NCBI GenBank assembly: GCA_002721695.1
Contig: PBLI01000084.1
Coordinates: 38,912-61,755 of the forward strand
Origin: Roseibacillus sp.
GTDB taxonomy: Bacteria > Verrucomicrobiota > Verrucomicrobiia > Verrucomicrobiales > Akkermansiaceae
Length of the DNA: 22,844 nt
Reading direction: 5' to 3'
Shown one piece after another: positions 8,872 to 22,844 of the stretch; the first letter of the stretch is position 1; the number at the start of each line of letters is the position of its first letter. Both the position numbers and the translations under genes were made by a program. The notes under the pieces are model-generated. The model worked only from the letters and a program-made list of their open reading frames with translations. It did no database searches and was not told the origin of the DNA.

Positions 8872-10563
8872 ATGCAGGCGACGGAATGGATTGTACGCGG
8901 TATTCCCGAGGGCGTGAGGTCCGGGCCGGGGGATGGCCTGCCGTTCATCCTCCGGGTCCTTCTTGCCCAGCGGGGCATCACCGCGGAGGATGAGCTGGAT
9001 TCGTTCCTGCGTCCCCGGCTTCAGGACCTGTGCGACCCCTTCGAGATTCCCGAGATGGAGGCGGCGGTCCAACGCCTCCTTCGGGCCGTGGATGAGGGGG
9101 AGCCTGTGTGCATTTTTGGTGATTACGATGTGGATGGAATCACCTCGGTGACGATCCTGCGAGCGGTCCTGAGCTCCTACGGGCTTGATCCGCAGACCTT
9201 CATCCCGGTCAGGGGAGAAGAAGGCTACGGGTTGAGTGATGCCGCTGTTGAGCGTTGTCTGGCGGGCGGGGTAAAGCCTTCCCTCCTGATCACGGTTGAT
9301 TGTGGGACGGCCTCCGGGCCCCAGATCGAGCGCCTGAGCGGGCGGGGCATTGATGTAATCGTGGTCGACCACCACGAACCCGGAGAGGCGGGGCGCCCGC
9401 CTGCGGTCGCCGTGGTCAATCCCAAACTTGGAGAGGACTACGGCTACCTGTGTTCTGCGGGGGTGGTCTTCAAACTCGCGCACGCGCTCCTCAAGACCCG
9501 GCGCCTTGAGGAAGTCGATCTCCGTGATTTTCTGGACCTGGTGGCGGTGGCCACCATCGCTGATATTGTGCCTCTGGTGGGAGAAAACCGCCTGCTTGTC
9601 CGGCACGGCCTGCGGCGCCTGCCGGGAACTTCAAATCTCGGGCTGCGCGCCCTCATGGAGGTGAGCGGAATGAACGGTCGGGCCACAAGTGCGGACGTCG
9701 GCTTCCGGATAGGTCCCCGGATCAATGCCGCGGGCCGGATGGACTCCCCGGAGGATGCGCTGGCAATCCTCATGACCGATTCCGAGAAGACGGCGGGCAG
9801 CCTTGCGGCGCAGTTGGACGACTACAACCGACAGCGGCAGAAGCACGAGCAGGAGATGTACGAGGAAGCCCTGGCACAGCTGGAGGAGGAATTCGATGAA
9901 GACAAGGACGCAGTCATCGTAGTGGGCTCACGTGGGTGGCACCCCGGGGTGGTCGGAATCGCCGCGTCCAGGCTCATGCGCTACTACCACAAGCCGGCTT
10001 TCGTTGTTTCCTTTGACGAAGGGGGCCTCGGGAAGGGGAGTGGGCGGAGTATTGAAGGGGTCTCGCTTGTCGAGGCCATCGACGCCTGCCGGCCGGTGCT
10101 CGTGGCTGGGGGGGGACACCACATGGCCGCGGGCATCAGTCTTCATGAAGACAGGCTTGGGGAATTCCGGAAGGCCTTCTCGGAGTTTGTGCTCACCCGG
10201 ACTTCGGCGGAGGAGCGCAGGCCGCGCATCCATGTCGATGCGGAAGTGTCGTTTGGGGAACTCTCGCTCGATTTTCTGCGCAGTTACGAACTGCTTCAGC
10301 CTTTCGGGTCCGGGAATCCGCAGCCCGTCTTCATGTCGCGGGAGGTCTGGCTGACTGAATCTCCACGGCGCCTGAAGAACCGGCATCTGAGGCTGTCTCT
10401 GCGGCAGGGAGTTCAGGAACGGGATGCGATGTACTTCGGGGCCGCCGACCGGGAGTTGCCCGACCCCCCCTGGGACGTGGCTTTCACCATCGACCGGAAT
10501 TTCTTCCGTGGGCGCACCTCCCTGCAGGTGAGCGTGCGTGACATCCGCTCGGCGGAGCGGTGA
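8872..10563 (+). CDS. recJ: Single-stranded-DNA-specific exonuclease RecJ
   Basis: DHH motifs (IFGDYDVDGITS, VDCGT, VVDHH) and DHHA1 (GGGHHMAAG), followed by a C-terminal OB-like region. Confidence 0.92.
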   Translation: MQATEWIVRGIPEGVRSGPGDGLPFILRVLLAQRGITAEDELDSFLRPRLQDLCDPFEIPEMEAAVQRLLRAVDEGEPVCIFGDYDVDGITSVTILRAVLSSYGLDPQTFIPVRGEEGYGLSDAAVERCLAGGVKPSLLITVDCGTASGPQIERLSGRGIDVIVVDHHEPGEAGRPPAVAVVNPKLGEDYGYLCSAGVVFKLAHALLKTRRLEEVDLRDFLDLVAVATIADIVPLVGENRLLVRHGLRRLPGTSNLGLRALMEVSGMNGRATSADVGFRIGPRINAAGRMDSPEDALAILMTDSEKTAGSLAAQLDDYNRQRQKHEQEMYEEALAQLEEEFDEDKDAVIVVGSRGWHPGVVGIAASRLMRYYHKPAFVVSFDEGGLGKGSGRSIEGVSLVEAIDACRPVLVAGGGHHMAAGISLHEDRLGEFRKAFSEFVLTRTSAEERRPRIHVDAEVSFGELSLDFLRSYELLQPFGSGNPQPVFMSREVWLTESPRRLKNRHLRLSLRQGVQERDAMYFGAADRELPDPPWDVAFTIDRNFFRGRTSLQVSVRDIRSAER

Positions 10564-10579
10564 GTAGCAGGCAGGACTC

Positions 10580-12601
10580 ATGAGCGCCGGGAAGTCCAGT
10601 CAATCCCTCTCCATTCTGGAGGCCTGTTCCGAAAAGGACCTCGAGGCGCTGAGCGGCGCCGGGATAGATACGCTGGGCGATCTCCTGGACTGGTTTCCGA
10701 GGCGCTATGAGGACCGAAGACGCTTCGATGCCTTTCCCGTGCAGGCCGGTGGGGAACCAGTCTGCCTGCGGGGGCTCGTGGTCGATTCCGCGCGGAAGCG
10801 CTTCGGTGGCCGACGCCAGTTTTACGAGATCGTGATCGAGGAGGGTGGCGACAATGTCCTCTCCACGAGCAAGGTGACCTGTCGATGGTTCAACATGCCC
10901 TACCTGCACCGCATGGTCGCGGTCGGCCACGAAGTGGTGGTTTACGGCAAACCCAAGGAGCAGGGCGGGCGCCTTCTCATCGACCACCCGGAGTTCGAGG
11001 TGGTGCAGGAGTCAGTCGGGCTCTCCATTCATCTTGAACGGATCGTTCCGATATATCGCAACGTGAGCGGAATTCCTCAGAGACGGCTGAGAGAGATGAT
11101 CTACGAGGCCTCGGAGAAGATGGACCCGGCCGAGGTGGAAGCACCCTATGAGATCGACCCCGGATTTCCCCGGGAAGAGGCTTTGCGCGCGGTCCACTTT
11201 CCCGCGGAACTGGAGCGTGCGCGGGAGGCCCGCCGCTACTTTGCGAAGGAAGAATTCTTCCTGCTGCAGGTCCATGTCCTGCGGCGGCGCCAGCAGCATC
11301 TCGAGCACCCCGGGCGGGTGCAGGGCCGCAAGACCGGATTACTGAGCGCCTTCCATGAGAGCCTGCCCTTCGAGCTGACCGCAGCGCAGAAGCGTAGCGT
11401 GCACGAGATCGCGGTCGACCTGCGGAGCGAGCGTCCCATGAACCGTCTCCTCCAGGGCGACGTGGGGTCGGGAAAGACCTTCGTGGCAATGTGTGCGATG
11501 CTGCTCGCGGTGGAGTCCGGGGGCCAGGCGGCTCTGATGGCTCCCACCCAGATCCTGGCCGAGCAGCATTACCTCACCTTCCGCAAGTGGCTGGCTCCGC
11601 TGGGCCTGCGCCTCTCACTGGTGACAGGATCGAAGCGGGAGAGCGATCACCTGGACCTTGCGGGTGACCCCCAGATCGTGATCGGCACCCATGCTCTCCT
11701 CTACGACAGCGTTGAGTTCAGCGATCTTGGACTGGTGGTCATTGACGAGCAGCACAAGTTCGGCGTGGCTCAGCGGGGGCAGCTCATTCAGCAGGGGATC
11801 ATGCCGGATGTCCTCGTCATGACCGCCACGCCGATTCCCCGGACCTTGACTCTGACGATTTACGGGGATCTCGATGTTTCCGTCCTCGATGAACTTCCGG
11901 CGGGCCGCGGCAAGATCGTGACCGGAGTGCGGGTGAAGCCCAAGGTGACGGATGTGACGAGGTTCGTGAAGGAGCAGCTGGTGGAGGGGCGGCAGGCCTA
12001 TCTCGTCTACCCGCTGGTGGAGGAGAGCGGAGCGGTGAAGGCCGGGTCGGTGACCGGCGAGATCGAGAAGTGGCGGAAGCGCTGCAAGGGGTATGAGGTC
12101 GGGCTCCTGCACGGGCAGTTGAAGCCGGAGGAGAAGGAAGACGTCATGAACCGGTTTCGCGACAATGAGATCCAGGTCCTCGTGGCCACCACGGTGGTCG
12201 AAGTGGGCGTGGATGTTCCGAACGCCAACCTGATGGTGATTTACAACGCGGAGCGCTTCGGGCTGGCCCAGCTCCACCAGCTGCGGGGCCGAATCGGAAG
12301 GGGTAAGCACAGGAGTTACTGCGTTCTGGTCACCGACGGGAAGAGCGAGGACGGGCTGAGAAAACTACGGGTGCTTGAGGACACCGGGGACGGATTCAAG
12401 ATAGCGGAGGAGGACCTTGTCCTGCGGGGACCGGGGGAGGTCCTGGGCACCGCGCAGAGTGGCTTGAGCGACCTGCGCTTTGCGGACTTTCTCGCCGATA
12501 CCGCGCTCGTGCGCGAAGCCCGCGCCCTCGCAGAAGAGCTTCTCGAGCGTGATCCGGACCTCGAGGATTATCCGGAACTGCGGGAACGGATACGGGAGTA
12601 G
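10580..12601 (+). CDS. recG: ATP-dependent DNA helicase RecG
   Basis: Wedge domain followed by SF2 helicase motifs: I LLQGDVGSGKT, II VIDEQHKFGV, VI QLRGRIGRG. It starts 16 nt after the recJ stop, so the two genes are probably co-transcribed. Confidence 0.92.
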   Translation: MSAGKSSQSLSILEACSEKDLEALSGAGIDTLGDLLDWFPRRYEDRRRFDAFPVQAGGEPVCLRGLVVDSARKRFGGRRQFYEIVIEEGGDNVLSTSKVTCRWFNMPYLHRMVAVGHEVVVYGKPKEQGGRLLIDHPEFEVVQESVGLSIHLERIVPIYRNVSGIPQRRLREMIYEASEKMDPAEVEAPYEIDPGFPREEALRAVHFPAELERAREARRYFAKEEFFLLQVHVLRRRQQHLEHPGRVQGRKTGLLSAFHESLPFELTAAQKRSVHEIAVDLRSERPMNRLLQGDVGSGKTFVAMCAMLLAVESGGQAALMAPTQILAEQHYLTFRKWLAPLGLRLSLVTGSKRESDHLDLAGDPQIVIGTHALLYDSVEFSDLGLVVIDEQHKFGVAQRGQLIQQGIMPDVLVMTATPIPRTLTLTIYGDLDVSVLDELPAGRGKIVTGVRVKPKVTDVTRFVKEQLVEGRQAYLVYPLVEESGAVKAGSVTGEIEKWRKRCKGYEVGLLHGQLKPEEKEDVMNRFRDNEIQVLVATTVVEVGVDVPNANLMVIYNAERFGLAQLHQLRGRIGRGKHRSYCVLVTDGKSEDGLRKLRVLEDTGDGFKIAEEDLVLRGPGEVLGTAQSGLSDLRFADFLADTALVREARALAEELLERDPDLEDYPELRERIRE

Positions 12602-12624
12602 GAAATGGGAACCGGGGATGCAGC

Positions 12625-12999
12625 CTAACGCTCGAGGATTTCCACCTCGTAGCCATCCGGATCAGTCACGAAAGCCATCTTACGCTCTCCCGAGGAGAAT
12701 TTCTCGCGCCAGCCGCCAGGCCAGATTTCGATCCCGGTGTTCTCCAGCCGGTCGCAGTAGGCAATGATGTCGGGGACCCCCACGCAGGTGTGCATGAGGT
12801 CCTCGGGGAACTCGACCTTGAACTCGGGGGAGTAGGTGAGCTCAAGGAAATGCTCATTGCCGGGAAGGTGAAGGAAGGCGAGTTTGTTCCCCTGGGGAGA
12901 GTCCTTGCGCTCGCCCACCTCGAAGCCAAGCTTCTGGTAGAAGGCGATGGAAGCTTCGGGATCCGAGACCCGGATCCGGGTGTGGAGAAACTTGATCAT
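12625..12999 (-). CDS. gloA: Glyoxalase I / VOC-family protein (lactoylglutathione lyase-like)
   Basis: The internal ATG at 12999..12997 gives MIKFLHTRIRVSDPEASIAFYQKLGFEV...LELTYSPEF...AFVTDPDGYEVEILER (124 aa), which aligns with E. coli GloA. The 72 upstream P/R-rich codons in the ORF track are read-through. Confidence 0.75.
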   Translation of the reverse strand: MIKFLHTRIRVSDPEASIAFYQKLGFEVGERKDSPQGNKLAFLHLPGNEHFLELTYSPEFKVEFPEDLMHTCVGVPDIIAYCDRLENTGIEIWPGGWREKFSSGERKMAFVTDPDGYEVEILER

Positions 13000-13308
13000 G
13001 GAGGGAGTAGCAGGCAGGGCGCAGCGGGTGGCAAGGATAGAATCAAGTCCTTTGTGTCCATCGCGCAGTCCCGCGTGTCCCGGTGATCTGGAAGACGGGC
13101 AATGGCGCGCTGCGCTCGATGGACCGGGGCGAGGACGGGGAGGGGGCATCCTGCAGGCAGGAATGAGGCTCGGGTTCCGCGGGGATTGTCTCTTGCTACC
13201 CCGGGCAACTGGCATTAGTTAAATTTCATCGCTCTTCGGTCCTTCAGCCTGACGCTTGCGCTCCGCTATCTCAATCCGAAGCGGACCTACTTCTCACTGA
13301 TCACCCTG

Positions 13309-14841
13309 GTGTGCCTCCTGGGGGTTGCGGTGGGCGTGATGGTTTTGATCGTGGTGCTGGCGGTGATGGCGGGCTTCGAGCGGGAAGTGAAGAGCCGACT
13401 GCTGGGATTCTCTCCCCATGTGCAGCTTGAATTGATGGGCGTGCAAGGCCCCGAGCTGATCTTCGACTGGCGGGAGATCAAGGAGCAGGTTGAAGCGGTT
13501 GAAGGCGTGGAGGAAGCTTATGCCCAGCTGCGGGATTTCACGATCCTGGAAATGTCGGACCTCTTTTATCCGGTCGAGTACCGCGCGATTGATACGACCA
13601 ACGAGAGCCAGATGAAGGGCCTCGAGGAGCTCATCCTCAAGGAGAAGTACGGTGGGACAGCCGACATGGGCCTCGACGACCGGGCGGTGGTTGCGGAGTC
13701 GACTGCCAGGCAGTTCGGAATCGCCGTTGGAGATCGGATCCTGCTCCACTCTGCGCGTAACCTGCAGCAACTGGCAGAGGCCTGGAAAACCACGGATCGC
13801 CCGCTCGTTGCGGTGGAGCATGCCGAGATGCTTGCCCAGGTGCGCAAGGACCTGCGGAACGAGATGACGGTTGAGAATACCAGGGAAGCTTTCGATATCG
13901 CGATATTGTCCGGAATTTTCGATGCGCTTGATGCAATCCGCCAGGAGAACATCCGGGAGAGTGAGCGGGGGATTCTCATCAATATCCTGAGCACGTTCCA
14001 GTCCGGCAAGCCGAATGAAGAGGATACCCGCTTCCTGCTGGAGCCCGGCTCGGTGGAGAGCGTTCTTGATCAACTCGACATCCTCGAAGCGATGGACCGC
14101 GAGGTGGAAGATGGGCGCCTCCTGCGAGGCATGCGGGAAGTGGCTCTGCCCCGGGAGCTGGAAGTGGTGGGGATCTTCCGGACGAGCCAGCATGTGCTGC
14201 ACCCTGCCGTCTTTGTTCCGCTCTCGATCGGGCAGGAGCTCAAGAACCTTGAGGGGGGAGTGGAAGCAATCGGGGTTCGGGTGGACGACCCCTACAAAGT
14301 TGAGCTTGTCCAGGAGCAGCTCAATGAGGCCCTCGGCTCGAGGTGGTCCGTGCAGAGCTGGAAGGACCAGAACCGGTCCTGGGTGGAACTGATCGCGAGG
14401 GAGCGGATGATGATGTATTTCGCCCTCTCCTTCATCGTGCTGGTTTCGGCCTTCTGCATCATGGCCGTGATTTTCACCATCACCATCATGAAGAAGCAGG
14501 AGATCGGGGTTATGAAAGCGCTGGGGGCCACGCCTTTCCAGGTGGTGAGGGTCTTTACCTTCCAGGGGTCGATCGTGGGATTTCTGGGGGCTGCGCTGGG
14601 GGTGGGCCTCGGCCTTCTGGTGGTGCGGTTCCGGGACCCGATTTACGGGGTGCTCAAGAATGTAGGCTTTGACGTGTTCCCGGCGGACTTTCACGGCATC
14701 GATGGTTTGCCGGCTCACGTGAATCCTCCGGAGGTGGTCATCGTGGGAGTGGGCGCCTTTGTGCTCTGTGCGATCGCGGCCTTCATCCCGGCCTTCCTTA
14801 CCTCCCGGCGTGATCCCGCGAGCTGTCTTCGCAACTTCTGA
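13309..14841 (+). CDS. LolC/LolE-family (FtsX-like) ABC transporter permease; true start probably upstream, about 13219-13308
   Basis: LGVAVGVMVLIVVLAVMAGFERE (LolC/E TM1 plus the conserved GFERE), a large periplasmic loop, and a C-terminal 3-TM FtsX domain. The in-frame upstream codons encode FIALRSFSLTLALRYLNPKRTYFSLITLV, which matches the LolC/E N-terminus, but there is no ATG/GTG/TTG between the TAG at 13216 and the GTG at 13309. Confidence 0.85.
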   Translation: MCLLGVAVGVMVLIVVLAVMAGFEREVKSRLLGFSPHVQLELMGVQGPELIFDWREIKEQVEAVEGVEEAYAQLRDFTILEMSDLFYPVEYRAIDTTNESQMKGLEELILKEKYGGTADMGLDDRAVVAESTARQFGIAVGDRILLHSARNLQQLAEAWKTTDRPLVAVEHAEMLAQVRKDLRNEMTVENTREAFDIAILSGIFDALDAIRQENIRESERGILINILSTFQSGKPNEEDTRFLLEPGSVESVLDQLDILEAMDREVEDGRLLRGMREVALPRELEVVGIFRTSQHVLHPAVFVPLSIGQELKNLEGGVEAIGVRVDDPYKVELVQEQLNEALGSRWSVQSWKDQNRSWVELIARERMMMYFALSFIVLVSAFCIMAVIFTITIMKKQEIGVMKALGATPFQVVRVFTFQGSIVGFLGAALGVGLGLLVVRFRDPIYGVLKNVGFDVFPADFHGIDGLPAHVNPPEVVIVGVGAFVLCAIAAFIPAFLTSRRDPASCLRNF

Positions 14842-14851
14842 GGGGGGCGTC

Positions 14852-15616
14852 ATGGAAGTCTGGATTGTCGAGGAGGGAGAGAAACGGGGCCCCTACCAGG
14901 CCTACGAAATCCGCGACCGGATCGAGAGGAAAGAACTCGCGGGTAATGAGCTTGCGTGGCACAGGGACCGGGAAGGCTGGATCGAGCTGAGGGAGATGGA
15001 TGCTTTCCGGGCGGAGTTCGACAAGTCACCGCAGGAGCTGGCGAGATCCCATCCGCCTCCGTTGCCGCCTCAGCCCTATCCCTTTCTCCGCTTCTTCGCG
15101 CGCTGGTTTGATGTCTGCCTCTACCTGCTCTTTATTTTCGGGCTGGTGCAGCTCGTGGGGCTCAACCTCTACAACGCCATGGGAGGATCGTTCCGGGCTC
15201 TTTACTTCCTGCCCTTTGTCTGCGTGGAGGCGGCTTTCATCCACCTGACCAAGACAACACCCGGCAAGTTCTTACTCGGAATCCGGGTGGTGACCCCGGA
15301 AGAGAACGCCCTCTCCCTGCAGGCCTCGCTGGTGCGTTCCCTGCGTGCCTACATCGTCGGGCTCGGACTTATGTTCGCGCCGCTCCTTACCGTGATGTGC
15401 CACACCTTCTGCATCTGGTATCTCATGCGTTTCAGCGAGGCACCGTGGGACACCACGGCAAAAACCAGGATCCGGGTAACGGGCCCCCTTCTCTTTCCGG
15501 TCATTCTCTTCATCATGTTTTTTGTCATCATTGTCGCGCTGCTTTCCCTCGTCCTAATGCCCGCCGTATTCCAAGCCTGGGAGGAGCTCAGCGGGCAGAT
15601 GACGGGACTTGGTTGA
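14852..15616 (+). CDS. DUF4339 (GYF-like) + RDD-family integral membrane protein
   Basis: ATG 10 nt after the lolC-like stop, preceded by gagggggg. N-terminus MEVWIVEEGEKRGPYQAYEIRDRIERKELAGNELAWHRDREGWIEL (a DUF4339-type small domain), then a proline-rich linker and 3-4 TM helices with RDD-like residues. Confidence 0.7.
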   Translation: MEVWIVEEGEKRGPYQAYEIRDRIERKELAGNELAWHRDREGWIELREMDAFRAEFDKSPQELARSHPPPLPPQPYPFLRFFARWFDVCLYLLFIFGLVQLVGLNLYNAMGGSFRALYFLPFVCVEAAFIHLTKTTPGKFLLGIRVVTPEENALSLQASLVRSLRAYIVGLGLMFAPLLTVMCHTFCIWYLMRFSEAPWDTTAKTRIRVTGPLLFPVILFIMFFVIIVALLSLVLMPAVFQAWEELSGQMTGLG

Positions 15617-15653
15617 CTCTATCTGTAGCAGCACCATACTCCGGGCAACGCAC

Positions 15654-16241
15654 ATGCCTGGGACGGTCTACTTCGATCTGGAAACACAGCGCAGCTTCAA
15701 CGACGTTGGCGGGTCGTCCAATCTGAGCAAAATGGGTGTCTCGGTGGGGTGCTCCTTCTGCACGGATTCGGGGGAGTACCGGGTTTACCCGGAAGAAGAG
15801 CTGGAAGACCTCGTCCAGCTTCTCACGAGGGCAGAGCTGGTGGTGGGCTACAATCACCTCCACTTTGATTACGGTGTGCTTGAAGGCTACACCGTGCTGG
15901 ATCTCGAATCCCAGACGGTGAACCTCGATCTCATGGTGGACCTGAAGGAGATCCTGGGCCGGAGGATCGGGCTGGGACAGGTCGCGGCGTCCACCCTCGG
16001 AACTGGCAAGACGGCAGTGGGTGTCGATGCCCTCAAGTGGTGGAGAGAGCACAAGGCCGTGGTGGGAGAGCAGGCCCGGAAGCCCGTCACCGCATACAGC
16101 GAGCCGCTCATGAAGATTGCCGAATACTGTGCCTACGACGTGAAGGTGACAAAGTGCCTGCACGAGTACGGACGTCAGCATGGACACGTCAAGTACGACG
16201 ATGGATCGGGGTCGCAGCAGGAGGTTGAGGTGAACTGGTAA
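15654..16241 (+). CDS. DnaQ-like (DEDDy) 3'-5' exonuclease, YprB / RNase_H_2-like
   Basis: ExoI VYFDLET, ExoII VVGYNHLHFDYGVL, ExoIII YCAYDV. A possible TTG start at 15609 would overlap the upstream stop by 8 nt. Confidence 0.65.
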   Translation: MPGTVYFDLETQRSFNDVGGSSNLSKMGVSVGCSFCTDSGEYRVYPEEELEDLVQLLTRAELVVGYNHLHFDYGVLEGYTVLDLESQTVNLDLMVDLKEILGRRIGLGQVAASTLGTGKTAVGVDALKWWREHKAVVGEQARKPVTAYSEPLMKIAEYCAYDVKVTKCLHEYGRQHGHVKYDDGSGSQQEVEVNW

Positions 16242-16453
16242 GGGCCGCATCCCTGTTCGCTTCAAGCAGGCCGGGCGCAGGGTGCCGTTGCCATCCATCC
16301 TATTCCAGTCGGCTCGCCCGAATCTGCTCGAAGCAAGAATTCAGGAACTTCAAACCATCCGGAGATCCCCTGATCGTAGGGGGTTGGTGCGTTGTTCCAG
16401 CGGGTTCCGAAATTCAGGCTTGTTTGTAATGGCATTCTGCCCGCGTTCGCTGC

Positions 16454-17158
16454 TTGTATGCCGGAGCCGTGAAGGAAATATGGGACCTTGCGACCAACGG
16501 ACAGGTGCTTCCGTTTACGCTCCTGTTGATTCCGGTCGCGCTCTACTGGCTCCTGGCGCTGCTGGGGACGCTGGATCTTGACTTTCTGGATGTGGACCTG
16601 GACCAGGATGTCGACGTGAGCGCCAGTGCCACTGTGGACGCGGGTGGGCAGGGGAACGGGCACGGAGACGTCCCCGGCCAGGGCGTGGTGATGAATGTGT
16701 TCCATGGTGCACTCAGGGCGATCAATGCCACCGACGTGCCCGTCATGGTCGTATTTTCCATTCTCATGATCATGATGTGGTTGTGCGCCATGCTTGGAAA
16801 CCTGTGGTTCAATGCGGGTGGAGGGGATGGATTGGGAACGATTATTGGTCTTAGTGCGGTGGCGGGAGGCTTGCTCCTGACCCGCGTGCTTACGGAGCCG
16901 CTGAAGCCGGTCTTCCGGGCCATGAGGGGTGCCGGAACCCCCAATCGCCCGGTGGTGGGCCGCAGCGGCAAGGTTCGCTCGCATGAACTGGACGAGCAGA
17001 GCGGGCAGGTGGAGATCGAGGAAAAGGGAGAGGTTATTTTAATCAACGCGCGTCTGGCGGAGGGGTCCGAGCCCCTGAGCCAGGGGGCGGAGGTGATTGT
17101 CTACGATTACAACGACGAGAGAGGAATTTACTACGTCAGGCACCTGACACCCAGCTAA
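16454..17158 (+). CDS. NfeD-like / YqiJ-family membrane protein with C-terminal OB-fold
   Basis: TM helices (LPFTLLLIPVALYWLLALLG; VMVVFSILMIMMWLCAMLGNLWF; LGTIIGLSAVAGGLLL), then GRSGKVRSHELDEQSGQVEIEEKGEVILINARLAEGSEPLSQGAEVIVYDYNDERGIYYVRHL, a short-NfeD beta-barrel. The start is TTG 16454 or GTG 16469. It lies 30 nt upstream of the flotillin gene. Confidence 0.7.
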   Translation: MYAGAVKEIWDLATNGQVLPFTLLLIPVALYWLLALLGTLDLDFLDVDLDQDVDVSASATVDAGGQGNGHGDVPGQGVVMNVFHGALRAINATDVPVMVVFSILMIMMWLCAMLGNLWFNAGGGDGLGTIIGLSAVAGGLLLTRVLTEPLKPVFRAMRGAGTPNRPVVGRSGKVRSHELDEQSGQVEIEEKGEVILINARLAEGSEPLSQGAEVIVYDYNDERGIYYVRHLTPS

Positions 17159-17188
17159 CCAAACCACGCAAAGACAACTGTTCGACCC

Positions 17189-19219
17189 ATGACTGCACTA
17201 CTACCGAGCCTGCCTCTGGCAAACCAGACCTTGATCATCGTTGGCCTTTCGATAGGGGGCCTCGTGGCGCTCTTCGTCGTCATGGCGATGACCTACGCCG
17301 CGCTCTATCGCAAGGTGAAGAAGGGGACCGCCCTGATCCGGACCGGATTCGGCGGAACCAAGATCGAGTTCAACGGAATCCTGGTCTGGCCCGTCTTCCA
17401 CCGGGTGGAGACCATGGACATCTCCCTCAAGCGGATCGAAATCGACCGGACGGGGAACAATGGCCTGATCTGTCAGGACAACATGCGGGCGGACATCAAG
17501 GTGGCCTTCTTTGTCCGGGTTAACAACGTGGAGGAAGATGTTCTCCGGGTTGCCCAGTCAGTGGGTTGCGAGCGCGCGTCGAGTGAGCCCGAAATCCGCA
17601 ATCTGTTCGACGCAAAGTTTTCCGAGGCCCTCAAGACAGTGGGCAAACGCTTCGATTTCATTGCCCTCTACGAGGACCGGGACAAATTCCGTGACGAGAT
17701 CCTGAAGGTGATTGGAACGGACCTGAATGGCTTTGTTCTTGATGACGCGGCCATTGACTACCTCGAGCAGACCCCGCTCGAGTCCCTCGACCCGGACAAC
17801 ATCCTTGACTCGGAGGGGATCAAGAAGATTACCGATCTGACCGCGGAACAGGCTAAACTTGCCAACAACATCCAGAGGGACAAGGAGAAGGTCATCAAGC
17901 AGCAGGACGTCGAGGCCCGGGAAGCAATTCTCGAGCTGGAACGCCAGCTGGCGGAGACCGAGGCCAAGCAGCAGCGCGAGGTGGAAACGGTGCAGGCCCG
18001 CGAAAAGGCGGAGGCCCTCAAGGTTCAGGAGGAGCAGCGCCAGAAGGCTGAGCACGCGCGCATTGCGGCCGAGGAGGAGATTCAGGTCGCTTCTCAGAAT
18101 CAGGAGCGCCAGGTTCTCGTGGCCCAGCGAAACAAGGAGCGTACCGACGGTGTGGAGCTTGAGCGGGTGGAGCGAGAGCGTATGCTTGAGCAGATTGAAC
18201 GCGAGCGGGTGACCGAGCTTAAGGCCATCGAGAAGGAAAAGGCCGTGGAAGTTCAGAAGAAGGAAATCCAGGACGTGATTCGTGAACGGGTGGCGGTGGA
18301 AAAGACCGTGGTGGAGGAGCAGCAGCGGATCAAGGACACGGAGGAATTCGCCACCGCGGACCGCCAGAAACAGGTCACCGTGACTCTGGCGGAGGCATCG
18401 GCCCAGGAGAAGCTCATCACGGAGGTCAAGGAGGCGGAAGCCAGCAAGCAGGCCGTGCAGCTTGAGGCTGACCAGAAAGCCTACGAGGTTCTCAAGGCTG
18501 CGGAAGCCGCGCGCCAGGCCGCGGAAATGGAGGCTGAAGAGCGGGTTATCACGGCCGAGGCTGAGGAGACTGCCTCGGAGAAGGAGGCGGCGGCCAAGAA
18601 GCTGATCGCCGATGCGGTGGCCAAGGAGGCCGCCGCGGTGGGACTGGGCGAGGCGGACGTCCTCCGCGCCAAGGGCGAGGCGGACGCTCAGGCGATCACG
18701 CAGAAGGCTGAAGCAATGAAGCTCTTCGAAGAGGCCGGCCAGGGCCACGAGGAATTCAAGCTTAAGCTGGAGAAGGATCTCGACGTGGAGCTCGCCGAGA
18801 TTGACGTGCAGCGCCAGATCGCGGAGCAGCAGGCCCAGGTGGTCGGGGAGGCCCTCAAGTCGGCAAACATCGACATTGTCGGTGGCGAGACTGAGTTTTT
18901 CGACCGCATTACCAACGCGATCACCACCGGTAAGGTGGTCGACCGCACGTTGAACAACAGTGAAGTCCTTGAGGACGTAAAAGACACCTTCTTCAATGGC
19001 GATCCCGACTACTTCAAGTCTCAGTTGGCCAGCTGGCTGGGCGATTTTGGGGTTAAGAGCGAGGATCTGAAGAACCTCAGTGTGACAGCGCTCCTTGCGA
19101 GTCTTGTTTCCAAGGCTCGCGGTGAAGACCGGACGCGTCTCGTCGGGCTCATGGGCGCTGCCGAGCGCTTCGGCCTTGGTGAGGCGAGGGCCGCGGACTT
19201 GCTCGAGAAACTTGGGTAG
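17189..19219 (+). CDS. Flotillin / SPFH (band 7) family protein, YqiK-like, with extended E/A/K/Q-rich coiled-coil
   Basis: N-terminal TM, then an SPFH core (LIRTGFGGTKIEFNGILVWPVFHRVETMDISLKRIEIDR...DIKVAFFVRV) and about 350 aa of EA-rich heptad-like repeats. The minus ORF 17558..18748 is an L-rich antisense shadow. Confidence 0.9.
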   Translation: MTALLPSLPLANQTLIIVGLSIGGLVALFVVMAMTYAALYRKVKKGTALIRTGFGGTKIEFNGILVWPVFHRVETMDISLKRIEIDRTGNNGLICQDNMRADIKVAFFVRVNNVEEDVLRVAQSVGCERASSEPEIRNLFDAKFSEALKTVGKRFDFIALYEDRDKFRDEILKVIGTDLNGFVLDDAAIDYLEQTPLESLDPDNILDSEGIKKITDLTAEQAKLANNIQRDKEKVIKQQDVEAREAILELERQLAETEAKQQREVETVQAREKAEALKVQEEQRQKAEHARIAAEEEIQVASQNQERQVLVAQRNKERTDGVELERVERERMLEQIERERVTELKAIEKEKAVEVQKKEIQDVIRERVAVEKTVVEEQQRIKDTEEFATADRQKQVTVTLAEASAQEKLITEVKEAEASKQAVQLEADQKAYEVLKAAEAARQAAEMEAEERVITAEAEETASEKEAAAKKLIADAVAKEAAAVGLGEADVLRAKGEADAQAITQKAEAMKLFEEAGQGHEEFKLKLEKDLDVELAEIDVQRQIAEQQAQVVGEALKSANIDIVGGETEFFDRITNAITTGKVVDRTLNNSEVLEDVKDTFFNGDPDYFKSQLASWLGDFGVKSEDLKNLSVTALLASLVSKARGEDRTRLVGLMGAAERFGLGEARAADLLEKLG

Positions 19220-19302
19220 CCCGGGGGAACTGTGCAGGAGGATAACCCATGAGGTTGCATCACAGGGGCTGGCCTGTCTCCGAAGGGGGCTCCTGATTCA
19301 TC

Positions 19303-22300
19303 ATGCCTGAAGAAACACAGCAGCTTGAAGGCGGTTCCTATGAGGTCATCCGGGACCGTCTGGCGCGGCACGGGAGTGACTTGCGGGGCCGCCTGGACGG
19401 GCTGAACGAGGACCGTAAGGAGCTCTTCGGGGTTGTTGAGAACGAGCTGGTCTCGACCTCGCGGATCGCTACCCAGTTCAATTGCGTGCCGCGGGACATG
19501 ATCGCGGTGGGGGCGAACCGGTTTCTGTTCGGCTACAACATCCAGTTCGGCCTCAAGCAGACGACCAGTGTGTCGGACGTCTTTGCGGCCTACCGGTATG
19601 ACCCGGAAGGTCATGAATTCCATCAGCTCCCGGTTGCGGAGATGCTGAGCGATGCCACCTTCGTGGAGGATTTCCAGTACCTGTACCGCTACTACAAGCA
19701 GACAGTCTTCGTGAAGTTCATGGTCATCGGTCCCAGCCTCTACATGGGGATGCGGATCGGCAAGGCGGTGGAGGATCTCAAGACCTTCAAGTGGCTCATC
19801 AAGGGGGATGGGACGCTGGACTACCTCGGGAACCGCTTTGATCATGAATACGCTTTTCCGTCCCAGCAGGAATTCGAGTGGACCCGTGCCCATCGCGATA
19901 TGCACCGGGGTGGAGAGCATCCCCATATCTCGATCGATGATCGCGTGTTCGTTGAGACGCTTGGTGGCGACTTGACGGTCAAGGTCGAGGACAATACCTC
20001 ATCGGGAGAGGGGATTTACTCCGAACCGGTCACGGACCAGGACCAGACCCTCGACGACGCGGAAATCTTCTACGCCTCGGTCGGTCCGCTGGTCCTGATG
20101 AAGGTCCTTCCCTACCGGGAGGAACTTCATCGCTACCTCGTCTATAACGAAAAGACACGGGTTGTGCACCGCCTTGATGCGATCGGGCACTCCTGCGTGC
20201 TGCTCCCGGACGAGCAGGGACTGATCTTTGCCAATGGATACCTGTTGCTCACGGGAGAGGTGAAGGTGTTCGAGACGGATCTCACGGACATGCGTTTCGA
20301 GCGGCGGATCGCCTCTGCCAACGGAGAGGACTACCTGTTTGTCTTCTACAACCGGCTCAGCGGCGACTATGTCCTGCTCTCCTACAATATCATATCGCAG
20401 ACGGTTGAGACGCCGGTCATCTGCAACGGCTACTCCCTGTTCCCGGACGGCAAGCTGATCTGTTTCAAGGCCGAGGCCGAGGCCCAGAAGCATCACTCCC
20501 TGCAGGTGTGGCAGACCTCCTATCTCAGCGAGGAAGCCCTGAGTGCGGATGCCGAGAGCCAGGATTCCATGCTCTTCAAGATCGGCAACGCCGCATTGGT
20601 CCGCGGAATGGCGGAGTGTCGGGAAGTGCTTGTCCTCCTCGGCAAGGAAGACAGTTACGCCGGACTCTACCTCGACCTCGTCAAGAAGACTGGGGACATC
20701 CTTGATGGCTACTTCTGGATTGCGAAGGAAGAGGCGCACGATCTTGCCGATCCTGTTCGTGAAATCCAGCGCGCCGCCGCCTCGGCAATCGACGAATTTG
20801 ACAAGGTGAAGCGTCTGCGGGAGGGCACGAGGCAGCAGACCACCGCCGTCCGCGGCGCGGTTGAGGAGGTCCTCAAGCAGGTCGCTTATGCGGCGCCCGA
20901 TGACATCTTCGGATTTGTGCATCATCTCACTGAGCTTCGGCGCCGCCGCGGGGAGGTGATCGGGCTGCGTGAATTACGCTATGTCGACACGAGGCTGGTG
21001 GAGGAACTCGAGGAGCAGGTGGTCGAGGCAACCGATAAGTGCTCCAGCCAGACGGTGGCCTTTCTCCTGAAAGAGGAGGCGCTGGACCCCTACCGCGGTG
21101 CGGTGGACGAACAGAAGACCGCGATCGGAAAGCTGAAGAAGGTGACCGAGGCGGACGGGGTGGGCGAAGCCCTCGACACGGCGGGCTCGGAATTGGAGAT
21201 GTTGATTGACGTGGTGAGCAACCTCAAGATCGAGGATGCGACCCAGACCACCGCAATCATCGATGGGATCTCGAGTATCTATGCGACTCTGAATGGAGTG
21301 CGGGCCGAGCTCAAGCAGGTGCGCAGGGATCTCGCGAAGTCGGAGGGGATGGCCCAGTTCAGCGCGCAGATGAAACTCCTGAGCCAGGCGGTGGTGAATT
21401 ACCTGGATCTCTGTGACACGCCTGAGCGCTGTGATGAATACCTCACCAGGCTCATGGTGCAGGTAGAGGAGCTGGAGGGGCGTTTCGCGGAATTTGACGA
21501 GGACATCGAGGAACTCGGAGCCAAGCGGGAAGAGATTTACGAGGCCTTTGAGGGGCGGAAGCAGGCGCTGCTTGAGCAGCGGAACCGTCGAGCCAGTACA
21601 TTGGTCAAGTCGGCGGAACGCATCCTCAGCGGAGTCCAGCACCGAGTGTCCAAGCTGGAAGACCTTAACGATATCAACGGCTACTTCGCGGGGGATCTCA
21701 TGATTGACAAGTTGCGCGACATCATCGCGCAGCTCGGTGCCCTGGGTGACTCGGTGAAGGCCGCTGACGTGCAGACCAAGCTCAATACACTGCGCGACGA
21801 TGCAGTGCGGCAGCTCAAGGACCGCAAGGAGCTCTTCGTGGATGGGGAAGCCGTGCTCCAGTTCGGGCGGCACAGGTTTTCGGTGAACGAGCAGGAGCTT
21901 GAGCTGTCGATCATTCCTCACGACGGGGAGATGTGCTTCCACCTCTCGGGGACGGATTTCTTTGAGCCCGTCCGGGACGAGGGATTCCTGGCTACGAGCG
22001 AAATCTGGGGGCAGGAGATCCTGAGTGAGAACGATGAGGTCTATCGGGTGGAGTGGCTGGTCTACCAGATGCTTCAGGGGAACGATTTCGGAGAGGGAAC
22101 GCTGGAGGACGTGCAGCGCTTCATGCAACCGCGCTATGCCGAGGGTTACACGAAAGGGGTGCATGACGAGGATGCGGTCAAACTGCTGGATGCCCTCCTG
22201 CCGGTCCACCAGGAGGTCGGCCTGCTGCGGTTTGCCCCGCACACCCGGGGAGCGGCCCTGGTGGCGTGGCATGCGGGTGAAGGGGAAGCCCGCGCGAGCC

Positions 22301-22844
22301 TGGCGGCCAAGCTGGCTGCCCATGCCGGGCGTCGCAAATACCTGGGGGAAAAGAACGGCGTGCACGAGTTCACGATGGAGCTCGCGGACTTTCTCGCTCC
22401 CATCCTGGAGCGGAGTTTCCCGGAGGTGGCGGTGGACCGGGCGGCCGAATACCTGTTTGGCGAACTGACCGGGGGACCCGGATTCGTGGTTTCGCGGGAG
22501 GCGGGGGCCCTCTTGCAGCAATTCAGCCACGTGCTGACTGCCAAGCGGGCCCGGAAGTCCTACGACGAGGCACTGGCGCCTTTTGCTGACGACGCCCTGG
22601 GGCGCTACCACGTCGCGAGGGACTGGTTGCAGGGCGTGGAGTCAATGCCTGCTCAGACAGGGTCGGAGGAGAAAGTCGAGCGGGTCCTTCCCACGGATAA
22701 TCTCCGGGAGTGGTATGTTTGCGAGGCAGCCGCTCAACTGGCTCGTGGAGGCCAGATGCATCCGGAGGCCCAAGGAGTCAACCTCGAGGTCGAGGTGCCG
22801 GAACTGGCGGGATCTCATTCCCGCATCGAGCAGCGGACCCTGGT
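19303..22844 (+). CDS. Very large uncharacterized protein, 3'-truncated by the window end (more than 1,180 aa visible); beta-rich N-terminal region followed by a long alpha-helical region; no Walker A seen
   Basis: The open frame runs from ATG 19303 (stop TGA at 19294-19296 just upstream; a G-rich tract aagggggc lies about 12 nt upstream) to the last base with no stop codon. It has strong GC3 codon bias. It is absent from the supplied ORF track only because it lacks a stop in the window. The three minus ORFs covering it (19021..19926, 19999..20925, 20974..22611) are low-complexity antisense shadows. Confidence 0.8.
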   Translation, partial: MPEETQQLEGGSYEVIRDRLARHGSDLRGRLDGLNEDRKELFGVVENELVSTSRIATQFNCVPRDMIAVGANRFLFGYNIQFGLKQTTSVSDVFAAYRYDPEGHEFHQLPVAEMLSDATFVEDFQYLYRYYKQTVFVKFMVIGPSLYMGMRIGKAVEDLKTFKWLIKGDGTLDYLGNRFDHEYAFPSQQEFEWTRAHRDMHRGGEHPHISIDDRVFVETLGGDLTVKVEDNTSSGEGIYSEPVTDQDQTLDDAEIFYASVGPLVLMKVLPYREELHRYLVYNEKTRVVHRLDAIGHSCVLLPDEQGLIFANGYLLLTGEVKVFETDLTDMRFERRIASANGEDYLFVFYNRLSGDYVLLSYNIISQTVETPVICNGYSLFPDGKLICFKAEAEAQKHHSLQVWQTSYLSEEALSADAESQDSMLFKIGNAALVRGMAECREVLVLLGKEDSYAGLYLDLVKKTGDILDGYFWIAKEEAHDLADPVREIQRAAASAIDEFDKVKRLREGTRQQTTAVRGAVEEVLKQVAYAAPDDIFGFVHHLTELRRRRGEVIGLRELRYVDTRLVEELEEQVVEATDKCSSQTVAFLLKEEALDPYRGAVDEQKTAIGKLKKVTEADGVGEALDTAGSELEMLIDVVSNLKIEDATQTTAIIDGISSIYATLNGVRAELKQVRRDLAKSEGMAQFSAQMKLLSQAVVNYLDLCDTPERCDEYLTRLMVQVEELEGRFAEFDEDIEELGAKREEIYEAFEGRKQALLEQRNRRASTLVKSAERILSGVQHRVSKLEDLNDINGYFAGDLMIDKLRDIIAQLGALGDSVKAADVQTKLNTLRDDAVRQLKDRKELFVDGEAVLQFGRHRFSVNEQELELSIIPHDGEMCFHLSGTDFFEPVRDEGFLATSEIWGQEILSENDEVYRVEWLVYQMLQGNDFGEGTLEDVQRFMQPRYAEGYTKGVHDEDAVKLLDALLPVHQEVGLLRFAPHTRGAALVAWHAGEGEARASLAAKLAAHAGRRKYLGEKNGVHEFTMELADFLAPILERSFPEVAVDRAAEYLFGELTGGPGFVVSREAGALLQQFSHVLTAKRARKSYDEALAPFADDALGRYHVARDWLQGVESMPAQTGSEEKVERVLPTDNLREWYVCEAAAQLARGGQMHPEAQGVNLEVEVPELAGSHSRIEQRTL

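Follow-up and report, generated by a model that had tools for sequence, protein, structure and literature searches.

In a 22,844-nucleotide (nt) stretch of DNA from Roseibacillus sp. (contig PBLI01000084.1, positions 38,912 to 61,755; here called the window), we analysed three neighbouring, co-directional genes. They encode, in this order and on the + strand, a YqiJ/NfeD-like membrane protein, a YqiK-type flotillin and a giant ATPase. We find that this locus, from a marine Verrucomicrobium, is one more example of an already described and widespread module. A first interpretation made from the letters of the window (the sequence-only reading) could match the trio to no described system; the existence and the synteny of the trio are, however, already known from the catalogue of Ravi et al. 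(mSystems 2024, PMC11237479), and the bac operon of Pseudomonas aeruginosa is its studied instance. For the flotillin/YqiJ/giant AAA+ module, of which the window carries a Verrucomicrobial copy, the best interpretation is an envelope or membrane-stress system in which ATP would drive remodelling, a reading that we hold with moderate confidence. The features of the locus are listed here with window coordinates, strand and protein lengths in amino acids (aa); TM stands for transmembrane segment.

16242..16468, +: upstream spacer, presumed promoter region of the module, 227 nt; the preceding gene ends at 16241
16469..17158, +: YqiJ/NfeD-like (BacC-like) inner-membrane protein, 229 aa; 3 TM, acidic D-rich loop, putative C-terminal OB-like domain
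17189..19219, +: YqiK-type flotillin (BacD-like), 676 aa; N-terminal TM, SPFH/band-7 domain, long E/A/K-rich coiled coil, conserved C-terminal region
19303..22844, +: DUF3686-family AAA+ ATPase (BacE-like), first 1,180 of 1,710 codons; the AAA+ domain lies past the window end
19378..20715, +: DUF3686 domain of the ATPase, aa 26-471; N-terminal helix followed by a beta-propeller-like all-beta domain
20725..21792, +: long helical, coiled-coil-like region of the ATPase, aa about 475-830; contains DUF7902 (aa 592-675, nt 21076-21327)
21793..22842, +: middle domain of the ATPase, aa 831-1180; small beta sheet and helical bundle, with KGVHDxDA at aa 951-958

Conservation, gene order and transcription of the trio

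The sequence-only reading regarded the third gene as specific to its lineage. This is not the case: the ATPase family comprises 720 representatives at 50% identity, and relatives were found in at least 585 species among the species genomes scanned. The family spans Verrucomicrobiota, Planctomycetota, Bacteroidota, Desulfobacterota, Clostridia, Actinomycetota, Deinococcota and Pseudomonadota. To compare gene order we used the best 80 loci, among which Verrucomicrobiota, Planctomycetota, Bacteroidota, Desulfobacterota and Clostridia are represented; at least 2.5 kb of upstream DNA is available for 63 of them. A flotillin homologue lies directly upstream of the ATPase gene and on the same strand in 60 of these 63 loci, and the expectation that homologues of the giant gene would sit downstream of flotillin genes in other genomes is thus borne out. 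In the window, the YqiJ-like gene directly precedes the flotillin gene on the same strand with a spacer of 30 nt; likewise, a YqiJ-like gene upstream of the flotillin gene is detectable by tblastn in 52 of the 60 loci. PspA is also present in 15 of those loci, mostly together with a CesT/Tir-like gene. The only exceptions among the 63 loci are L043, L044 and L050 (Desulfobacteraceae, Cytophagaceae and a Bacteroidia metagenome-assembled genome), where the ATPase gene has neither a flotillin nor a YqiJ-like gene within about 8 kb upstream. The same gene order is found in distant copies from Hymenobacter, Streptomyces, the Pseudomonas fluorescens megaplasmid pQBR103, Deinococcus, Vibrio and Proteus, and it is kept in all five distant taxa compared (Streptomyces, Deinococcus, Pseudomonas, Vibrio and Proteus). 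That the trio is inherited as a unit with a common arrangement, and that its clustering goes beyond chance, is therefore strongly supported.

Two variations of the arrangement were observed. Some Bacteroidota carry three to four genes for small predicted membrane proteins between the flotillin and the ATPase genes (L068 6519-7943; L069 5838-7738). Furthermore, a PLD-family (BacF-like) gene is located 3' of the ATPase gene in P. aeruginosa, two Verrucomicrobial metagenome-assembled genomes and Vibrio campbellii, at the following positions.

L089 13260-13952; L056 14586-15248; L061 9436-10098; L092 10891-11547: PLD-family genes after the ATPase gene

On the window's contig, the ATPase gene is instead followed by a small convergent gene, with no PLD-family gene.

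The three genes probably form one module that is transcribed as one unit, as the sequence-only reading had proposed. Its intergenic spacers of 30 nt (17159-17188) and 83 nt (19220-19302) agree with our coordinates. No terminator-like site was found in either spacer. In the 83-nt spacer, folding is not stronger than in shuffled sequences (z = +1.12) and a U-tract is absent. In addition to the conserved synteny, co-transcription across every junction of bacA-F, bacD-bacE included, has been demonstrated in P. aeruginosa by reverse transcription PCR (PMC10948618), which likewise points to a single transcript.

For the first gene, the start TTG 16454 given by the sequence-only reading is possible; however, the alignment of homologues and the public annotation, in which the protein has 229 aa, favour GTG 16469, which is most likely the start. 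The upstream spacer consequently measures 227 nt and not 212 nt as had been reported. The strand and order of the genes, the flotillin gene at 17189-19219 and the open reading frame from 19303 needed no revision. The earliest possible start of the giant open reading frame is ATG 19303, because an in-frame TGA is present at 19294-19296.

No sigma-70-like site was found in the upstream spacer (16242..16468). The short direct repeat that had been noted there exists, with AATTCAGG at 16338 and 16411 as its sole occurrences in the window, but it carries no weight: about 0.4 repeated 8-mers are expected by chance within about 227 nt, and having two copies only, it was rejected as a functional element. 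A sigma-54-like sequence, TGGCATTCTGCCCGC (TGGCAT-N6-CGC), lies at 16430-16444 with the correct GG-N10-GC spacing, 25 nt before the GTG start. We considered it as a promoter by analogy with bacA of P. aeruginosa and rejected it as a chance occurrence, since it is not conserved: the relaxed motif is found upstream of the module in 9 of 52 relatives, which corresponds to the background of 0.24 per region.

The neighbours of the trio on the contig are housekeeping genes (lpxK, recJ, recG and the gene for RNase PH). Directly upstream (window 13309-16241) are a MacB/FtsX-like gene, an RDD-family gene with a weak GYF_2 match and a weakly RNase_H_2-like gene; these three genes are syntenic with Rubritalea spongiae (L018 1770-4778), in keeping with an origin of the window from Verrucomicrobia of the Rubritalea/Akkermansiaceae group.

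The gene neighbourhood also bears on a possible role in anti-phage defence or abortive infection, in which the module would sense infection at the membrane. Copies of the module are found on plasmids and megaplasmids (pQBR103 and plasmids of Hymenobacter, Deinococcus and Streptomyces), some operons carry a PLD-family gene, and the P. aeruginosa genes PA3728-PA3732 were induced in all phage-infected samples. Such induction is, however, also expected of a general phage-shock or envelope-stress response. The housekeeping neighbours in the window do not resemble a defence island, and the closest relatives are members of the phylum to which the window belongs, in line with mostly vertical inheritance. 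Compared to the PADLOC profiles, only the coiled coil of the ATPase gave cross-matches (LmuB and JetC, best E-value 3e-05) whereas the other two proteins gave none. We thus regard a defence function as quite improbable.

The giant ATPase and the two membrane proteins encoded beside it

The giant open reading frame leaves the window after 1,180 codons. A flotillin sequence identical to that of the window is present on several marine metagenome contigs, TARA samples included, and the longest of these contigs (ena:ERZ27287912:k119_1279319, L001) carries the complete ATPase gene at 12115-17247, with 1,710 codons. The first 1,180 residues of this ATPase are 100% identical to the window. The giant protein is soluble. 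It begins with a beta-propeller-like domain, continues with a long helical region and a helical domain that has no solved relative, and carries a single AAA+ module; no transmembrane segments were found in it. The Pfam families DUF3686 (E-value 4.6e-184) and DUF7902 (E-value 2.6e-27) are both matched far above their cut-offs, and the protein is 43% identical to P. aeruginosa BacE over its full length.

Structure prediction was carried out in two runs, and the propeller-like domain of DUF3686 is predicted with confidence. In the family alignment, the helical region that follows has a low proline and glycine content (0.03-0.06) and an amphipathic periodicity of 3.5-3.6; its only matches are cross-matches to coiled-coil profiles (LmuB, JetC, MscK and TrlF). 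The middle domain (aa about 831-1180) is conserved and contains the invariant motif KGVHDxDA, and no solved relative of this domain was found.

The AAA+ module is located at about residues 1225-1600 of the L001 protein, past the window end, where the sequence-only reading had suspected an enzymatic domain. It matched Pfam AAA, AAA_5 and RuvB_N and carries Walker A, Walker B and sensor 1/Arg motifs. Across 44 diverse relatives, the sequences SPPGYGKTT (Walker A), VDDIQH (Walker B), AGNP and PDMLANR do not vary. By sequence, its closest solved relatives are the classical AAA proteins NVL, Rix7, p97/Cdc48 and NSF. The C-terminal 25 residues of the ATPase form a polybasic tail, KASRKKTAKKKAAKKKALPP (L001 17155-17230), which is not conserved in the family consensus and might interact with anionic lipids or with nucleic acid.

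This architecture bears on two alternative functions. The leading idea of the sequence-only reading was a membrane coat of the type known from Planctomycetes, Verrucomicrobia and Chlamydiae (PVC bacteria), built from a beta-propeller and an alpha-solenoid and partnering the flotillin. Both the domain architecture and the phyletic spread contradict this resemblance. The helical part gives no solenoid match, the protein is not a solenoid devoid of an enzyme, as its C-terminal AAA+ ATPase is foreign to the membrane-coat architecture, and the family is spread far outside the PVC bacteria. We therefore give the membrane coat next to no credence.

The second alternative comes from the databases, as the NCBI family name of the giant protein is 'DNA repair ATPase' and Pfam carries the same label. 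A function in DNA repair could also be suspected from recJ and recG, which lie 3.9-7.6 kb upstream of the trio (window 8872-12601), and from recJ two genes downstream of the P. aeruginosa bac operon (L089 14642-16357). When considered as the source of the name, this linkage was rejected as coincidental, since it occurs in 2 of 90 loci only. Profile searches detected no DNA-binding, nuclease or helicase domain in the ATPase, and its gene is almost invariably linked to genes of two membrane proteins. A DNA repair function is thus very improbable, and the name, which finds no support in domains, linkage or the papers searched, is probably misleading.

Direct searches of Pfam, NCBIfam and PDB with the flotillin and the NfeD-like protein of the window gave no significant match. 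We therefore established the family identity of these two proteins with family profiles built from syntenic relatives (A2 for the flotillin, A3 for the YqiJ-like protein). Profile A2 aligns to residues 11-422 of Escherichia coli YqiK, which cover the transmembrane segment, the SPFH domain and the coiled coil (hhalign probability 100%, E-value 3.9e-43), and the flotillin of the window is 45% identical to P. aeruginosa BacD (E-value 6e-164). Pfam Band_7 is matched by 5 of 39 members of the flotillin family and not by the window protein, which has a weak match to NCBIfam FloT. The protein combines a single transmembrane anchor (residues 15-33) with the SPFH/band-7 domain and an E/A-rich coiled-coil region (residues about 220-520) that aligns to YqiK; this coiled coil also has weak matches to human flotillin-1 (9l3g, E-value 0.13) and QmcA (E-value 5e-4).

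Similarly, profile A3 aligns to E. coli YqiJ over 184 columns (hhalign probability 96.6%, E-value 5.9e-10) and to P. aeruginosa BacC (99.6%, E-value 3.8e-24). Its sole match in the PDB is the OB domain of YuaF (2k14), which is weak (E-value 0.33) although it falls where such a domain would be expected (positions 146-202). Pfam YqiJ_N (PF21001) is matched by 14 of 38 family members, with the window protein below the threshold. The YqiJ-like protein, of the YqiJ/NfeD1b type (DUF1449/YqiJ_N), has transmembrane segments at residues 13-31, 92-110 and 122-140, so that the number of transmembrane segments across the trio is three, one and none. Judged by these profile comparisons, the three-segment YqiJ-like protein and the single-segment YqiK-type flotillin are the conserved NfeD-SPFH pair, in agreement with their initial identification.

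Proposed membrane remodelling and its alternatives

The sequence-only reading had offered a membrane-associated stress module as an alternative to the membrane coat, and it is this suggestion that gains from the AAA+ domain beyond the window and from the bac operon as a counterpart. We propose that the flotillin and the YqiJ-like protein would build an SPFH scaffold at the cytoplasmic face of the inner membrane. This scaffold would recruit the ATPase, which probably docks via its propeller and coiled coil and would oligomerise through the AAA+ module. During envelope stress, ATP would then be used to remodel or disassemble a membrane-bound assembly, which could be the flotillin cage itself or polymers of PspA (an ESCRT-III-type protein). 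In bacteria, the module is often fused to a CesT/Tir-PspA pair, as in bacABCDEF; in the organism of the window, PspA would have to be encoded elsewhere. We infer this remodelling mechanism, in which the pairing would be analogous to HflK/C-FtsH or ESCRT-III-Vps4.

Several observations weigh against this reading and its link to the phage shock protein (Psp) response. The similarity to classical AAA proteins is limited to about 35-70 residues, comprising the Walker A region and the preceding segment. The Walker B pair is DD and not DE (aa 1342-1343, L001 16138-16143), which is invariant in 44 family members, and a canonical aromatic pore-loop motif after Walker A was not seen on inspection of the sequence. 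The DD Walker B and the lack of a canonical pore loop make a threading unfoldase mechanism uncertain. Genes for PspA, CesT/Tir and PLD proteins were not found in the window by tblastn, nor were they called on a 22-kb stretch of the 27-kb contig, and the locus would be linked to Psp by homology of the module only. Physical interaction among the three proteins is presumed in the model. Finally, in the literature searched we found no experimental work on a DUF3686 ATPase for any organism: searches for DUF3686, for 'DNA repair ATPase' with flotillin and for YqiK with YqiJ and ATPase gave no paper. The papers that mention PA3728, including PMC12041424, appear, from titles and abstracts, to be genomic, transcriptomic or unrelated studies.

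The same features of the AAA+ module are relevant to a function in membrane-protein quality control, where the scaffold would corral damaged or misassembled proteins and the ATPase would extract or unfold them, as a protease-less analogue of HflK/C-FtsH or Cdc48/Msp1. The pairing of SPFH and AAA+ proteins has a precedent in HflK/C-FtsH, the Walker A region most resembles those of Cdc48, NVL and NSF, and the predicted beta-propeller could serve in the recognition of substrates or adaptors. On the other hand, the DD pair and the lack of a visible canonical pore loop argue against such an activity, and the module has no linked protease gene. Furthermore, the recurrent fusion to PspA and CesT/Tir (PMC11237479) points to the remodelling of polymers or membranes instead. 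We thus consider quality control, although plausible as a variant, unlikely and retain the envelope or membrane-stress system with ATP-driven remodelling as the preferred reading.

Within this preferred reading, a more specific role can be suggested. According to a 2025 review (PMC7619361), bacterial PspA has no known Vps4-like ATPase. The DUF3686 ATPase might be this missing bacterial counterpart of Vps4, which would be recruited by flotillin and YqiJ for the disassembly and recycling of PspA polymers and/or flotillin cages in membrane repair. We put this forward as a tentative proposal that is more doubtful than the general reading. If the ATPase does remodel SPFH cages or polymers of PspA, bacterial ESCRT-III-like and flotillin-based membrane repair would thereby obtain its missing ATP-dependent step.

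Comparison with known systems

The analogy to HflK/C-FtsH and ESCRT-III-Vps4 is a functional one only: in both systems, a membrane-bound scaffold of SPFH or ESCRT-III type is paired with a ring-forming AAA+ machine. Vps4 and FtsH belong to the classical AAA clade together with Cdc48 and NSF, and neither of the two is among the matches found here. Beyond the AAA+ core there is no homology between FtsH or Vps4 and the ATPase of the window, which has no protease domain, no transmembrane segment and no MIT domain. Only the DUF3686 family has the N-terminal propeller-like domain, the coiled coil and the middle domain of this protein, and its DD Walker B pair also differs from FtsH and Vps4.

The first two genes of the trio are homologous to yqiJ-yqiK of E. 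coli and yuaF-floT of Bacillus subtilis, where the NfeD-like gene is likewise located directly upstream of the flotillin gene. Compared to these pairs, the flotillin and the YqiJ-like protein of the window are too divergent for the Pfam thresholds, and the flotillin is longer than its E. coli counterpart (676 aa versus 553 aa). The sequence-only reading correctly stated that yqiK is not followed by a giant gene in E. coli; no ATPase gene follows it in E. coli K-12, which is simply one of the genomes that lack the ATPase.

A closer counterpart is found in P. aeruginosa. The P. aeruginosa member of the ATPase family (P0273, a DUF3686 protein of 1,746 aa) is encoded in a locus with the order DUF2170, PspA, a 213-aa protein, a 688-aa protein, the 1,746-aa protein, PLD, YaeQ, recJ and an M4 peptidase. 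Based on gene order and PAO1 numbering, we take this locus to be PA3732-PA3724, with bacABCDEF as PA3732-PA3727, recJ presumably as PA3725 and the M4 peptidase presumably as lasB (PA3724). The genes bacC-bacD-bacE have the same order and orientation as the YqiJ-like, flotillin and DUF3686-AAA+ genes of the window. The bac operon additionally contains upstream genes for a DUF2170 protein (the CesT/Tir-like BacA) and PspA (BacB) and a downstream PLD gene (BacF), whereas the window and the contig lack these; the sigma-54 promoter proposed for the bac operon has no conserved counterpart at the window locus either. In a bacA mutant, the levels of all six Bac proteins increase jointly (PMC10948618). 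The bac operon ties the trio to biofilm formation, virulence and the phage-induced stress response.

An operon that joins CesT/Tir-PspA with a flotillin, an AAA+ ATPase and a YqiJ/YuaF-type protein with three transmembrane segments is described in section 19 of Ravi et al. (PMC11237479). [quoted passage not shown] In addition to this catalogue, we here contribute the quantified synteny, the confident model of a propeller-like domain, a middle domain with an invariant KGVHDxDA motif and no solved relative, and the invariant DD Walker B. What remains of most interest is the biochemistry of a very large and highly conserved ATPase that is present in at least 585 species and is nearly always found beside a flotillin. 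The window has the core trio in the order of the Psp-type bac operon, with no PspA/IM30 or DUF2170 gene adjacent to it, and thus matches the 'abbreviated' form of this operon: it is exactly such a trio without an adjacent PspA, and nothing essential differs between the two.

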